Of a DNA stretch of 30,388 bases, positions 19,196 to 24,113 are shown in pieces. The stretch is from a bacterium. Its GTDB lineage: Archaea > Thermoplasmatota > Thermoplasmata > Lutacidiplasmatales > UBA184. The notes beneath the pieces are model-generated. The model was not told the origin of the DNA. It worked only from the letters and a program-made list of their open reading frames with translations, and ran no database searches. The translations under genes and the position numbers were made by a program. Position 1 is the stretch's first letter. Each line of letters opens with the position of its first letter. The DNA lies in NCBI GenBank assembly GCA_021832495.1, contig JAKBKR010000001.1:1-30388 (forward strand), read 5' to 3'.

Positions 19196-20329
19196 TCAAT
19201 CGCCCCGGCGGAGCAAGGTGACGAAATTGTTCGAGCCCATCCCGCCGACGGATTGGGCCAGGCCAAGTCGGCGTTTGCCCGCCTGTACCTTCCCTGCCTC
19301 CCCTTGAAGCTGAAGCACGATCTCGACGATCTGGGCAAGGCCGGAGGCTCCCACCGGATGCCCCCTGCCAAGGATTCCCCCCGATGGATTGACCGTCACG
19401 ATGCCCGTCGGGGCTCCGTTTCCCTTTTGGAGCCAGAGAAGGGCCTCTCCTGGCCCGCACAGGCCCACGTCCTCGAGATCGATGAGCTCGAAGGGAGCGA
19501 ACGCATCGTGGACCTCGGCCAGGTCGACCTCCTTGCGTGTGATCCCGGCCATGGAGTACGCCCGCTGGGCGGCGAGCCGTGTGGCGCGGAACCCGGTCAG
19601 GGTCTCCCGCAGCACCACATCCGGGATGTCGGTCCCCTGTCCTATACCGACCACCGCCACCCTGTCGGTAGCCCGGGTGATCACGGCAGCGCAGGCCCCA
19701 TCGCTTATCGGAGCGACATGGAGGAGCCGGAGAGGGCTCGAGATCATGCGGCTCTCCCGGACCTCGGCCAAGGTGACCGGTTTTTGGAAGTGCGCAAAGG
19801 GGTTGAGCGCAGCCCGCTCCCGATTGGCTACGGTGACGATCCCGACATCCTCGATCGAAAGCGAAAAAGCGTCCAGGTACGCCTGGCTCACCAGGGCCGC
19901 CATCGAGGGCATGGTCGCCCCATGCAGGACCTCCCGCGGGGAAAGCGAGTGGGAAAGGATGGTGGTGACGTCGGTCAAGGGGGCGGCGGTCATCTTCTCC
20001 CCGGCGAGGACGAGGGCGGAGCGGTAGCTGCCCGAAGCCACTGCATGGACTGCGGCATGGAACACGGCCGCGCCAGAGGCCGAGGCGGCATTCACATGGA
20101 ACCCCGGTGCTCCCGTCATCTCGAGGGCCTCGGCGACCTTGGGGACGAGGTTCTCGATACCGGAAAGCGGCCCGGGGGCCATGCAGCCTACGAAGAGGGC
20201 CTCCGGGGGGGTACCCCCCCCCGGGGCACGCTCCAGAGCGTCCTTACCCGCTTGGGTCAAGAGCCCGAGGAGATCCTCTTCCCGCCGCCCGAAGCGGGTC
20301 CGACCGGCCGCGGAAACCCAGACGCTCAT
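19196..20329 (-). CDS. Thiolase-family (SCP2-like/archaeal) protein with atypical active site
   Basis: AGEKM, APISDGACA, EVHDAF, NPSGG...GHPVGASG; the nucleophile position reads NAASASG. Confidence 0.92.
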   Translation of the reverse strand: MSVWVSAAGRTRFGRREEDLLGLLTQAGKDALERAPGGGTPPEALFVGCMAPGPLSGIENLVPKVAEALEMTGAPGFHVNAASASGAAVFHAAVHAVASGSYRSALVLAGEKMTAAPLTDVTTILSHSLSPREVLHGATMPSMAALVSQAYLDAFSLSIEDVGIVTVANRERAALNPFAHFQKPVTLAEVRESRMISSPLRLLHVAPISDGACAAVITRATDRVAVVGIGQGTDIPDVVLRETLTGFRATRLAAQRAYSMAGITRKEVDLAEVHDAFAPFELIDLEDVGLCGPGEALLWLQKGNGAPTGIVTVNPSGGILGRGHPVGASGLAQIVEIVLQLQGEAGKVQAGKRRLGLAQSVGGMGSNNFVTLLRRGD

Positions 20330-20859
20330 GTCGATATCTCGAGCACCATCTGGAGGAAGTCCATGAGGGGTTTCCCGTCCTTCCAGCGCAGCACTTGGTT
20401 CCCCTTGTCGGTCACGTCGATCCCCGGGGTGTTGTTGGCGATGAACCGTGCCACCCCCTTCGTGTCCCCATTCGAGGCGCGGAAGAGCCGCCAGGGGTCC
20501 TCGTCCCGCATTCCCATGAGGCGGTACGCATAGAGCAGGACCTGCCCCGCCCGGAGGGTTTCACGGGTGAGCTGCTCATATTGTTCCCGGTTCCGTCCCC
20601 GCGACGCGGTGAAATGCACCACAGCCTCCCCGGAGCATTTCACCTCGATGGGGAGGGCCACGCCATCCCGGAGCGCCAGGAGGTCGAACCCGTGCGATCC
20701 TGCCGTCCGGACCACGAGGAAGGGGCGTTCCGCCAGCTTGTCGAGAGTGTGCAACGCCTCAAGGGACGAGGCGATCCTTCGGTACCGGCCCAAGAGCTGT
20801 CGATCTCCCCCCATGATCCCCTTGAGCTCCCGCTCGTAGGAGGAGTACCCGGATCCCAT
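20326..20859 (-). CDS. Hjc-like Holliday junction resolvase / PD-(D/E)XK nuclease
   Basis: SYERELK (catalytic E), VVRTAGSHGFDLLAL (D), PIEVK (ExK), YAYR; ATGA overlap with the thiolase gene. Confidence 0.8.
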   Translation of the reverse strand: MGSGYSSYERELKGIMGGDRQLLGRYRRIASSLEALHTLDKLAERPFLVVRTAGSHGFDLLALRDGVALPIEVKCSGEAVVHFTASRGRNREQYEQLTRETLRAGQVLLYAYRLMGMRDEDPWRLFRASNGDTKGVARFIANNTPGIDVTDKGNQVLRWKDGKPLMDFLQMVLEIST

Positions 20860-20880
20860 GCGGGTCCGGAAGGACCCAAC

Positions 20881-20891
20881 AATAGATATAG
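20881..20891. promoter_or_regulatory. Candidate shared TATA element of the nuclease and ATPase genes
   Basis: AATAGATATAG is the AT-rich patch in the 58-nt spacer, about 22-37 nt from both ATG 20859 (-) and ATG 20918 (+). Confidence 0.55.
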
Positions 20892-20917
20892 GCTCGGAAG
20901 ATGCTCCGGGAGTGGCG

Positions 20918-22378
20918 ATGGGGGTGGCGGCGGGGCATGGGCCGGACCTCGAGGTGACCGAGGAGGAGGTCCCGGTGGCCCGCAAGGTACTGGACCTCCT
21001 TCAGAGCTCCCGTCAGCATCAGGAGGCGCGTGGCCAGCGGGGTGGCCGTCCCTCGTTCCGGCTTTCCGAGCTACGGTTGGCACTCCTGAAGGAGAAGGCC
21101 TTCACAGATCCTCTGCGGCTTCTACAGCGCCTGAAGCGGGTCGGGCTCCTCGAGGAGGTCGCATCGACCCGGGAAGACCGGACGTACGTCCCCACGAGTG
21201 AAGAGCATCTCCTCGGGTTCCTCCGCTCGAGCCTCGAGGCGCCCGAGCCGGGATTCGAGGGAACCATGTCCGGGCCCACCAATGAGGCGATCGAGCTAAG
21301 GGAGATGGACACCGAGTACTTCCTCTACCTGAAGGACCTCCTCACCGATCGTCTTCCGGCCGTACTCAAGTTCGCCGAGGAGTTCACGCTCGCATCGCTC
21401 GTGAGCTACACGAAGGAGCTCTTCGGTGAGGAGCTCTTTCTCGACATCCTGATCGGACTCCTGCACCAGTATGCCCTATGCGATGCCCCGCTGATGGCCC
21501 CCACGGGGCGGCCGACGGGAACGAGCGGATTCAACCTCTCCCTGTTCGGACCACCCGGGACGGGGAAGACCTTTGCCATCGACGACATGATCCGGGGCAA
21601 CCCGAAGGCAGGGGTTCCCCCCCACGGGCTTCCCGGACGGAACCGTTACTGCGGCGGGATCACCCCGGTACAGTTCCTCCGAGTGGGTTCTTTCTATCGG
21701 GGTCGCACGTTCAATTTCATCGTGCCGGAGTTCAACGACTGGTTCAAGTACCGCGGCATGGTCGAGCCCTTGAAGCTGGTCATGGAGCAGCGCCCCGTCA
21801 AGTGGGAGACCACGCTTGGCACGATCGGCCCGTACATCTTCGCCTCGTACTTCTCGGTGAATTACAACGTCCGGGTCGAAGGGGGAAGTGACTATTGGAC
21901 CACGATCGCCGACCCGAACTTCGCTGCGCTCGAGGACCGGATGCTCCTCCGGTTCCATCGCATGACCAAGGCCCGGTTCCGGGCCGTGGAAACGAGCGCC
22001 GAGCGTCTGGAGCTCGGGGAGATCGATTTCTCTCGGGCCGGGATGATCCGTGATCATCTCACCCTGGTCCATGCCGTGCAGACGGGCCATCCTCTGGCCC
22101 GGCACTGGAAGAGGAAGGGGGTTGCACTCACGCGCCAACTCTACGGTTCCTTGCGCTCGGTTTCTGAGAAGGCCCTGGAAAGGACGAGTCACCCCCGGTT
22201 CTCCCCGCGCCTAAAGAGCCGGGCGGCCCGGCTGGCGGCCGCCGGAGCCCTGGTCGGGTACTTCGCTCAAGGTTCGGACGATGTCATCCCGGTGGGAAAG
22301 GAAGAGGAAGGGCTGGCCCGGCGCTTCTACGAGGAGGAGATTGCGGCGAGGGAAGGGAAAGGCTCCTGGAGACACTGA
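20918..22378 (+). CDS. Winged-helix + MCM-like AAA+ ATPase, uncharacterised
   Basis: Walker A LFGPPGTGKT, Walker B-like FIVPE, LKLVMEQ + beta-hairpin, sensor I SVNYN, Arg-finger AALEDR, sensor II FSPRLKSRAARLA. Start chosen at ATG 20918; the ORF is open from 20858. Confidence 0.8.
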   Translation: MGVAAGHGPDLEVTEEEVPVARKVLDLLQSSRQHQEARGQRGGRPSFRLSELRLALLKEKAFTDPLRLLQRLKRVGLLEEVASTREDRTYVPTSEEHLLGFLRSSLEAPEPGFEGTMSGPTNEAIELREMDTEYFLYLKDLLTDRLPAVLKFAEEFTLASLVSYTKELFGEELFLDILIGLLHQYALCDAPLMAPTGRPTGTSGFNLSLFGPPGTGKTFAIDDMIRGNPKAGVPPHGLPGRNRYCGGITPVQFLRVGSFYRGRTFNFIVPEFNDWFKYRGMVEPLKLVMEQRPVKWETTLGTIGPYIFASYFSVNYNVRVEGGSDYWTTIADPNFAALEDRMLLRFHRMTKARFRAVETSAERLELGEIDFSRAGMIRDHLTLVHAVQTGHPLARHWKRKGVALTRQLYGSLRSVSEKALERTSHPRFSPRLKSRAARLAAAGALVGYFAQGSDDVIPVGKEEEGLARRFYEEEIAAREGKGSWRH

Positions 22379-22400
22379 GCCGAAGCGAACGCTGCGACGC

Positions 22401-22811
22401 ATGGCCCCCTCTTCCGGGGACTACGAGCTCGCGGCGCCGGAGATCATCGAGGCGCTCGCCCTACGGGCGTTGTATTCCTCCGGTGGCTCCATCGAGACCC
22501 AGCGGAAGCTCCACGCCGAGCTGGTCGAGCAACTGCGCGGCGAGGAGAAGCGCCTGCGCGTCAGCGAGGAGCGCATGCGTTCGGTGCTCCTCACGTCGAA
22601 ACGGATCGCGGTCGATGTGCGGTATGCCTCGCGACCGGTGTCCGCGCCCTTGCGTTCCTGTCCGGTCTGTCACCGACCGATCCGGGAGATCTACAACGAA
22701 ACGTTGGACGGGGGCCGGGTGATCGCCGGGTACAAGTGCAGCCGCTGTCCGTTCTGGACGCCCATCCGCCGACGGGTCCCGGCCCGGTACACCTTCCGGG
22801 CCACGCGCTGA
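22401..22811 (+). CDS. Helical/wHTH-like domain + Zn-ribbon protein
   Basis: 136 aa; IETQRKLHAEL...EERMR helical N-terminus, CPVC...YKCSRCPFWT...VPARYTF; 22 nt after the ATPase stop. Confidence 0.8.
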   Translation: MAPSSGDYELAAPEIIEALALRALYSSGGSIETQRKLHAELVEQLRGEEKRLRVSEERMRSVLLTSKRIAVDVRYASRPVSAPLRSCPVCHRPIREIYNETLDGGRVIAGYKCSRCPFWTPIRRRVPARYTFRATR

Positions 22812-22866
22812 TCCCGCTCCGGGGCTTCACCGATGGCAACATGGGCCTTCCGGTGAAAGGTGATAC

Positions 22867-22874
22867 TTTAAGTA
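22867..22874 (+). promoter_or_regulatory. TATA box of the GT2 gene
   Basis: TTTAAGTA with purine-rich upstream sequence, about 40 nt before ATG 22914. Confidence 0.55.
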
Positions 22875-22913
22875 GGAACATCTTCTCAGACGTACCCCGA
22901 TATACCTGCACAG

Positions 22914-24113
22914 ATGTTTGGACTATCGCTCCTACAGGAGGTGTTGTTCACCGCGCTGGTTCTGCTCCTCTTCTTCACGTTGTTTGCTGGCATCCTTCGA
23001 CGCGCGTGGGCCTTTCCGGCTATATTCTGCTCCTTGCTTCTCGTCGTCATGATTTTTTTCGATCTTTTCCCGGGGGTTCTGGGGTACGTAATCGAGGGAC
23101 AGCCCGGCCAGAACTCGGTTTACCTAAGGTTCGACATCCTGTTGATCGCCTTTGCGGTCCTCGCCTACGCCTACGCCACCCGGGAGTACAAGCACCACCA
23201 GGAGTTCGCCGGCCATGTCCGGTCCCAAGCCCTCGCTCTTGCAGAACTTATGCTGGAGGCCCAGAGCAAGGTCCCGTCCGGAATGACCCGGGTGGTCATC
23301 CTTATCACCGCACGGAACGAGGCCGAGTCTATCGGTGAGGTCTTGGCCGCCTTGCCGACCCAGGTCGGAAACCTTGAGTTCAAGACCTTGGTTGTGGACG
23401 ATGGATCCTCGGATGCGACCCCCCTCATCGCACGGGAGGCGGGAGCGCTCGTTGTGCGCCACGGCACCTCTCTCGGAGTTGGTGCCCCTCTTACCACGGG
23501 CTTCGTCGCAGCCATGCAACTCAATTGTCAATACCTCATCCACATAGATGCCGACGGCCAGCACAACCCGGACGACCTCATGCGGATCCTTGCCCCGCTC
23601 ATCGAGGGCCGGGCAGACATGATCATCGGATCTCGGTTCCGGGAGATCCGCCCGACCCATCTTTCCGCCACGCGGTCGATAGGCATACGGCTCTACACCC
23701 GGCTGGTGAACTTTCTCACCGGGTACACCATCACCGATGCGACATCTGGATACTGGGGAATCCGGGCCGAGAGGATCCCGGACATCAGCTTCCACGCGGA
23801 ATACAACTTTGCGGTGGAGATGCTTCTCCGGGCGGGGAAGAACAAGGTCAGGCTCGACGAGGTCCCCGTGGTCCAACTACCGCGTTTGGGTGGGCACTCC
23901 CAATTCCACAGCATCTCCTTGTTCCTGCTCTACCATCCCCGTGCCGTGGCACAGATCATCTCGGCGTACACCCGGCCCGGACCGAAGTTCCCGATATTTC
24001 CTCGGGTATCCAAGTCGGACCCTCTCCCAAGAAGGGGCGAGAGGGTCACACCCCCCCACCTGCTTGAGACCCGAGTCCGGGGCGATGCGCATTCCGATCC
24101 TGCGGAGAAGTAG
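22914..24113 (+). CDS. DUF2304-like membrane domain fused to a GT2 (DPM1-like polyprenol-phosphate) glycosyltransferase
   Basis: N-terminal TM domain (FDLFPGVLG...HVRSQAL); GT2 motifs ARNEAESI, VVDDGSSD, HIDADGQHNP, IIGSRF, TDATSGY. Confidence 0.85.
   Translation: MFGLSLLQEVLFTALVLLLFFTLFAGILRRAWAFPAIFCSLLLVVMIFFDLFPGVLGYVIEGQPGQNSVYLRFDILLIAFAVLAYAYATREYKHHQEFAGHVRSQALALAELMLEAQSKVPSGMTRVVILITARNEAESIGEVLAALPTQVGNLEFKTLVVDDGSSDATPLIAREAGALVVRHGTSLGVGAPLTTGFVAAMQLNCQYLIHIDADGQHNPDDLMRILAPLIEGRADMIIGSRFREIRPTHLSATRSIGIRLYTRLVNFLTGYTITDATSGYWGIRAERIPDISFHAEYNFAVEMLLRAGKNKVRLDEVPVVQLPRLGGHSQFHSISLFLLYHPRAVAQIISAYTRPGPKFPIFPRVSKSDPLPRRGERVTPPHLLETRVRGDAHSDPAEK

Follow-up and report, generated by a model that had tools for sequence, protein, structure and literature searches.

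An AAA+ ATPase of predicted MCM fold encoded opposite the Holliday-junction resolvase gene in one family of Thermoplasmata

Resolvases of the Hjc family act as dimers that cut four-way DNA junctions. Among the published archaeal partners of Hjc are PINA and Hjm/Hel308, junction motors described from Sulfolobus (PMC6061704). The PINA-Hjm-Hjc system and RuvAB-RuvC rest on a common concept, in which the resolvase is recruited by a hexameric ATPase that also moves the junctions. The locus considered here places the gene of an uncharacterised AAA+ ATPase head-to-head with hjc, within a window (the whole stretch of DNA analysed) of 30,388 nucleotides (nt), namely positions 1 to 30,388 of contig JAKBKR010000001.1, assembly GCA_021832495.1. 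The window has a G+C content of ~63% and comes from a Thermoplasmata metagenome-assembled genome that is 65% complete. A preliminary description of this DNA had proposed that the nuclease, the ATPase and an adjacent small zinc-ribbon protein (hereafter ZnR) form a branch-migration/resolution or defence unit, on the premise that archaea lack RuvAB. That premise holds only in qualified form, given the published Hjc partners named above. The gene arrangement itself, and the likelihood of co-regulation, were borne out. The three-component resolution unit was not supported, as the genes are co-localised in a single monophyletic clade and are not co-distributed. The locus is probably a lineage-specific block in which two bicistrons diverge from a common bidirectional promoter, rather than a conserved three-part system, and its novel item is the ATPase family, whose modelled motor domain is of the MCM fold.

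Layout and origin of the block

Five closely packed genes span positions 19196-24113, arranged around a divergent spacer:

19196-20329, minus strand: thiolase-fold gene (Pfam Thiolase_C_1, 1.5e-39, and Thiolase_N)
20326-20859, minus strand: hjc, Holliday-junction resolvase of Thermoplasmata type, 177 amino acids (aa), by PF01870
20860-20917, no strand: divergent spacer with one quasi-palindromic TATA-like box, from the sequence
20918-22378, plus strand: uncharacterised AAA+ ATPase, 486 aa, with a P-loop and an MCM fold in the AlphaFold2 model
22401-22811, plus strand: ZnR, small protein with a winged helix and a Cys4 zinc ribbon, 136 aa, by alignment and model
22914-24113, plus strand: family-2 glycosyltransferase

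The distribution of this arrangement was assessed at 84 non-redundant ATPase loci, each neighbour being scored only where the flanking sequence was sufficient. Loci of the clade that corresponds to the window's own family (f1) were compared with all others:

Hjc upstream of, and divergent from, the ATPase: 40/40 in the f1 clade, 0/34 at all other loci
Thiolase-like gene behind Hjc: 27/27 in the f1 clade, 0/29 at all other loci
ZnR downstream of the ATPase: 39/44 in the f1 clade, 0/36 at all other loci

Such a gene-neighbourhood survey was among the tests that the preliminary description had itself set for its proposal. In a FastTree phylogeny the Hjc-adjacent loci all fall into one clade (43 rows) with Shimodaira-Hasegawa (SH)-like support of 94. 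Because these loci are monophyletic, the adjacency has a single origin and its 40 cases are not independent. Across independent lineages the three genes were neither co-localised nor co-distributed, adjacency being confined to this one clade, and ten families keep Hjc and ZnR without the ATPase. The thiolase-like gene, an unrelated metabolic gene that serves as a negative control, is linked just as tightly (27/27), and linkage at this locus therefore does not imply shared function; even 40 conserved adjacencies out of 40 can represent one historical event.

The details of the junctions offer a means by which such an arrangement could persist. In the leftward bicistron hjc is the first gene and the thiolase-fold gene the second, the ATG of the latter overlapping the hjc stop codon (ATGA at 20326-20329). 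On the opposite side, ZnR begins 22 nt past the ATPase stop codon (22376-22378), with no AT-rich box in the gap, and such a box next appears only upstream of the glycosyltransferase gene; the ATPase and ZnR genes of this locus are likely co-transcribed as an operon. The spacer between hjc and the ATPase measures 58 nt from the ATG at 20918, or 52 nt if an in-frame GTG at 20912, which matches the GTG starts of many orthologues, is the true start. Its sole AT-rich element, AATAGATATAGG at 20882-20893, lies 25-31 nt from both start codons, and one comparable box occurs at similar distance in nearly all of the 40 or more related spacers, whose lengths range from 54 to 140 nt. This geometry is as expected for leaderless or near-leaderless divergent transcripts and suggests a promoter function for the box. 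Scans for sigma-70 promoters and intrinsic terminators were uninformative, the host being an archaeon.

Most likely, then, one TATA-like box would drive two near-leaderless transcripts, hjc with the thiolase-fold gene to the left and the ATPase with the ZnR gene to the right. The block would unite a housekeeping resolvase, a class-wide ZnR and an uncharacterised ATPase of MCM fold, the adjacency to hjc dating from a single event in the ancestor of one Thermoplasmata family. Since that time it has probably been held together by its very short shared promoter and its overlapping or near-abutting operon junctions. A break in the 58-nt promoter, the 4-nt overlap or the 22-nt junction would damage two genes at once, and this by itself can freeze the arrangement, which is a more economical account of its persistence than a partnership of the proteins.

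Several observations weigh against this explanation. The hidden Markov model of Hjc that returned 0/34 was built from Thermoplasmata sequences, and the check with PF01870 outside Thermoplasmata covered five genomes only, all of them ATPase-bearing Bathyarchaeia or Nitrososphaerota, in which the model locates Hjc elsewhere. Within ±6 kb, clade members belonging to other genera retain only the four-gene block of the window in tblastn comparisons, which were used in place of ORF-based (open reading frame) synteny strings of the flanks, discarded as too noisy at this G+C content. The block thus holds together better than the DNA around it and has outlasted rearrangements on either side, perhaps because co-expression is under selection, and conserved divergent pairs with a common promoter are sometimes functionally linked. 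Two homologues of the ATPase also lie beside nuclease genes of other types. The first, of 469 aa (33% identity over nearly its full length), is followed by an ERCC4-HhH2 (XPF/Mus81-type) nuclease (region L035:5852-8043) on a virus-like or mobile NCBI assembly contig of 12.4 kb with about 30 small co-directional ORFs, including YopX. The second, more distant (24% identity), begins 8 nt after an SNase-OB-fold nuclease gene (region L037:5175-7533) on a Logan contig of bacterial-type context (mraZ, rsmH, clpB, rimP). Among 121 neighbours of ATPases outside the clade, no Pfam family occurs more than four times, those that reach four being coiled-coil models. The ERCC4 and SNase genes are single cases, and the idea that the ATPase has a nuclease as its recurring companion was not supported.

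The ATPase family and its predicted fold

Searched exhaustively, 1.84 billion cluster representatives yielded only 101 relatives of the ATPase. These share residues ~120-480, while their N-termini are variable; a zf-AN1 domain is found in 27% of the members of one Bathyarchaeota cluster. Beyond the P-loop, which bears out its earlier assignment as a P-loop AAA+ protein, the ATPase matches no Pfam, NCBIfam, PHROG or PADLOC family, and no account of the family was found in the literature searched. Sequence identity is 58-85% inside the family and ~45% between phyla, and the gene is single-copy and chromosomal. Apparent 'long forms' of 663-674 aa are probably over-extended ORF calls that run antisense through hjc.

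The ATPase is present in all 24 genomes of f1, in 4/4 of a second family (f2) and in the single genome of a third (f13), and a search of 11 genomes representing ten further families did not find it. Beyond Thermoplasmata, homologues are known from Bathyarchaeia, Nitrososphaerota and Planctomycetota and, sporadically, from further archaea. Since a canonical MCM (~700 aa) is encoded in each of the 41 related genomes (41/41), the ATPase is an extra gene. In three of the genomes (G004:C32, G018:C20 and G032:C43) the MCM match is in two pieces 1-2 kb apart within one open frame of 1087-1366 aa, the pattern expected of an intein in MCM. In f2 and f13 the ATPase, Hjc and ZnR genes lie on separate contigs. 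At the f13 locus (L018:2296-2772, G040) the gene divergent from the ATPase is not hjc; it encodes a 159-aa Csa3/CARF-like Rossmann protein with weak Pfam matches (7e-6 and 4e-3).

An AlphaFold2 model built on an alignment of 36 sequences has a mean predicted local-distance difference test (pLDDT) score of 89.6. It consists of a winged helix (residues 15-107; Z ~8 to winged-helix proteins), a long helical hairpin (121-186) and an AAA+ core with its lid (190-480). The top Foldseek matches of this model are all MCM proteins (E 1e-7). A search independent of Foldseek placed MCM, MCM2-7 and MCM8/9 chains at Z 17.9-20.4, a range that rests on eleven MCM entries, with root-mean-square deviations of 3.8-4.6 Å over 278-313 residues; MCM8/9 scored 18.6-18.9. 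Next came RavA (13.8), BrxL (13.8), BchI (13.3), ComM (12.8) and the SCCmec helicase Cch (11.9), and the MoxR-like CHU_0153 (2r44) belongs, with RavA and BchI, to a group at Z 11-14. At the level of sequence the ATPase has no PF00493 match at E <= 0.1, and its locus is absent among the PF00493 matches of the genome. Alignment of the family with a thin, two-sequence MCM profile by hhalign was limited to the Walker A region (probability 6.5%), the family profile found only a Lon lid among PDB sequences (E 1.2), and the YifB model TIGR00368 gave 11 bits over just 20 residues. The motor domain, as modelled, is of the MCM fold, and on this basis the family forms a separate branch of the MCM clade that has not been described before.

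The order of motifs along the predicted core is as follows:

21548-21571, plus strand: Walker A, G211-PPGTGK-T218, nearly invariant among 36 family members
21710-21733, plus strand: Walker-B-like strand FNFIVPEF, residues 265-272, from column counts
21794-21868, plus strand: predicted pre-sensor-1 beta-hairpin (293-307) and sensor-1 strand with invariant N315/N317, from DSSP of the model and column counts
21935-21940, plus strand: D340-R341, Arg-finger candidate (EDRMLLRF; compare MCM SRFD), R341 in 35/36
22202-22210, plus strand: S429-P-R431, sensor-2 candidate (FSPRLKSRAARLA; compare MCM TxRQLESLIRL), R431 in 35/36

Motif order together with the predicted structure points to the Arg-finger and sensor-2 candidates; a further Arg, R478, is also conserved. 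The Walker B motif is unusual in that E271 is retained while Pro (27/36) or Thr (9/36) stands where the canonical Asp is expected, so that the family consensus, hhhh(P27/T9)-E-F-N-D-W, departs from the canonical D-E (IDEFDK). The helix-2 insert is not visible in the model (helix 250-260), and the predicted pore-hairpin tip of this ATPase (TTLGT) contains no basic residue. There is roughly an even chance that the protein would assemble as a ring NTPase, gripping nucleic acid through its winged helix and pore hairpins, and would remodel DNA or translocate on it.

The resolvase and the zinc-ribbon protein

The neighbours of the ATPase belong to families that are conserved far beyond this block. 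Hjc passes the gathering threshold of PF01870 (36.5 bits, cut-off 21.1), and a six-frame search of the genome returned one match only, this same hjc at 37.3 bits. The gene starts at an ATG at 20859, and the E...D...ExK signature of a PD-(D/E)XK nuclease, noted in the preliminary description, is intact: the catalytic residues E9, D59 and E72-x-K74, with codons within 20638-20835, do not vary among 17 orthologues drawn from the whole class, nor do the motifs YEREL, GxDL and P(I/V)E(V/A)K in class-wide orthologues. One hjc orthologue (L049) is out of register over some 35 residues ahead of GxDL, probably through a frameshift or an assembly error. Identity to orthologues from the other families is 33-42% across ~170 aa. 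The class-wide form is longer by an insertion of ~30 aa behind helix 1 and by an extension of ~50 aa at its C-terminus, which account for its low score against the NCBIfam equivalog NF040854 (13.9 bits, cut-off 70) and its weak alignment with Pyrococcus furiosus Hjc (1GEF). PF01870 matches 39/41 related Thermoplasmata genomes, with one match each in 38 of those. The genes next to hjc in other families are as varied as purD, a solute-binding protein, DUF531, an HTH_10 regulator, a radical-SAM enzyme, a GHMP kinase and an acyl-CoA ligase. Hjc is an ordinary, class-wide housekeeping protein, the sole Holliday-junction resolvase of this organism, without a conserved partner.

ZnR has no Pfam match, and its detectable relatives are exclusively from Thermoplasmatota; scans of all three proteins against NCBIfam, PHROGs and PADLOC were likewise unproductive. 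It is single-copy in 40/41 relatives, including every family that lacks the ATPase. Because ZnR is kept in lineages without the ATPase, its function is independent of the latter. Its neighbours elsewhere include an ARMT1-like phosphatase, an ATP-grasp enzyme, purH, folE2, a PCC-domain protein and a Ni-insertion protein. The four zinc ligands, C87, C90, C113 and C116 (22659-22748), are invariant in 17 orthologues, as are Q34, R58, P88, N99, T101, P127 and Y130, in keeping with the helical and Cys4 zinc-ribbon protein first described. The model (pLDDT 84.8) consists of a winged helix followed by a zinc-ribbon/beta unit, and its structural matches are generic winged helices (Z 7-8.4). ZnR is probably a nucleic-acid-binding protein. 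The language-model neighbours that bear a Pfam name are PF0610-like (score 0.76), which serves as a lead only. A possible longer ORF, from an ATG at 22281, would overlap the 3' end of the ATPase gene by 98 nt and add a basic tail, and two non-adjacent orthologues (L019, L022) have Lys/Arg-rich N-tails too. The conservation of STRRR, considered as support for the long form, was dismissed, as it is an out-of-frame reading of the conserved ATPase motif FYEEE.

Comparison of the ZnR profile with the zinc ribbon of TFIIE-alpha gave a weak match (E 0.015). The identification of ZnR as the missing TFE-alpha was rejected, since at least nine related genomes contain, besides ZnR, separate PF02002-like ORFs (~125 aa). 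PF02002 (TFIIE_alpha) itself has only two weak matches in the 24 f1 genomes (G001-G024), and nearly every other family of the class has an ORF of ~125 aa that matches the full model; TFE-alpha in f1 may be very divergent or missing.

Alternative readings and known systems

Three other accounts of the locus have been considered beside the favoured one, a lineage-specific block. The first retains a motor-nuclease unit, in which an MCM-fold ring translocase would move or remodel branched DNA, as an analogue of RuvB, PINA or ComM, and pass junctions to Hjc, with ZnR as a DNA-binding adaptor and co-expression from the single TATA box maintaining stoichiometry. A recombination role for the ATPase is conceivable because ComM, a member of the clade, is a branch-migration helicase (Z 12.8), and the scores of MCM8/9, the MCM-clade fold and the N-terminal winged helix are all compatible with it. 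The conserved adjacency and shared box at 40/40 clade loci, kept despite the divergence of Hjc to 38-50% identity and changes in the flanks, favour such a unit, as do the sporadic ERCC4-HhH2 and SNase-OB neighbours of distant homologues. However, the adjacency, having one evolutionary origin, amounts to a single observation, the thiolase-like gene is equally linked, Hjc and ZnR persist in ten families that lack the ATPase, and in f2, f13 and other phyla the ATPase is non-adjacent; no nuclease recurs among the 121 other neighbours. The family-wide loss of the Walker B Asp, the pore-hairpin tip without a basic residue and the helix-2 insert not seen in the model also speak against this unit. We consider such a unit, and any real partnership of the ATPase with Hjc, rather unlikely. 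The fuller version, in which the ATPase would be a novel archaeal branch-migration or fork-remodelling motor, a RuvB-like Hjc partner on an MCM chassis with ZnR as its junction-binding adaptor, is unlikely.

A second alternative, also unlikely, holds that the ATPase is not a DNA enzyme, and that as an MCM-clade AAA+ protein it would remodel proteins or complexes in the manner of MoxR/RavA or Mg-chelatase, its winged helix serving protein contacts and its position beside hjc being incidental. This would agree with the presence of RavA, BchI and CHU_0153 among the structural matches, the lineage-dependent N-termini with their occasional zf-AN1 domain, and the non-canonical Walker B. The conserved partner in Bathyarchaeia, moreover, is not a nuclease. 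There, a ~540-aa protein (P0228) that belongs to no Pfam family and has a long coiled coil at its centre is encoded upstream of the ATPase homologue on the same strand in an operon-like arrangement, at -4 to +13 nt, at ten loci (L078, 3888-5495; L080, L082, L094, L099 and five further Bathyarchaeia loci), and a conserved gene of ~230 aa lies convergently downstream of the ATPase at seven. P0228 is a candidate for the true partner of the ATPase family. In the 41 Thermoplasmata genomes it gave five weak C-terminal matches (E 1e-5 to 1e-6) and no co-distribution. Against a protein-remodelling role, the MCM chains, at Z 18-20, stand far above the chaperone-type members of the clade, and one homologue lies beside ERCC4 on a virus-like contig. 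The nearest viral or mobile-element matches are replicative helicases or primase-helicases. A scan of viral contigs found no real relative.

The last alternative, an anti-virus defence unit of nuclease, NTPase and zinc-ribbon sensor, which the preliminary description had also raised, is highly improbable: nuclease and AAA+ pairs are common in defence systems and BrxL, a defence AAA+ of the same clade, scores Z 13.8, but PADLOC-DB 2.0 has no match for Hjc or ZnR and only an 18-residue P-loop of MkoA (E 0.03) for the ATPase, all three genes are present as single copies, at a fixed place, in every genome of the clade (24/24), Hjc and ZnR range across the class, and no island features were seen across the region, whose G+C content is flat at 0.63-0.67.

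Set against described systems, the components of the block differ in how closely they resemble their relatives. Hjc resembles canonical Hjc (1GEF; NF040854) in its PF01870 match, its E-D-ExK residues and its occurrence as one copy per genome, and differs in the insertion and extension described above. ZnR shares with PF0610-like regulators and TFE-alpha the succession of winged helix and Cys4 ribbon; unlike them it has no Pfam match, and as it coexists with TFIIE_alpha-like ORFs it is not a TFE orthologue. With the PINA-Hjm-Hjc system the locus has one component in common, Hjc. PINA combines PIN, RecA-like and KH domains and RuvB is an AAA+ protein of the HCLR clade, whereas the ATPase described here belongs to a different fold class and its contact with Hjc is hypothetical; T2SSE matches obtained in a search for PINA led only to ATPases of the CpaF/GspE/FlaI type. 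Were the ATPase to act with Hjc, it would be a third candidate archaeal junction motor beside PINA and Hjm.

ComM/YifB, RavA/MoxR, BchI and BrxL are of the same AAA+ clade as the ATPase (Z 12.8-13.8), but they score clearly below MCM, show no sequence-family match with it and carry other accessory domains. The closest likeness is to MCM itself, that is, archaeal MCM, Mcm2-7 and MCM8/9. The AAA+ core and lid of the predicted model superpose on those of MCM, and Walker A, the Walker B Glu, the pre-sensor-1 hairpin, sensor-1 Asn, Arg finger and sensor-2 Arg follow in the same order. The differences are equally clear: the N-terminal OB/Zn domain of MCM is absent and a winged helix with a helical hairpin stands in its place, Walker B reads P/T-E-F rather than D-E-F, the protein has 486 aa against ~700, and it has neither a PF00493 match nor, in the model, a visible helix-2 insert. 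The ATPase family is worth keeping in view, being strongly conserved, with the motor fold of MCM and no Pfam or NCBIfam model of its own. The protein dispenses with both the Walker B Asp and the DNA-loading N-domain of MCM, and knowledge of what it does would broaden the range of motors recognised in the MCM clade.

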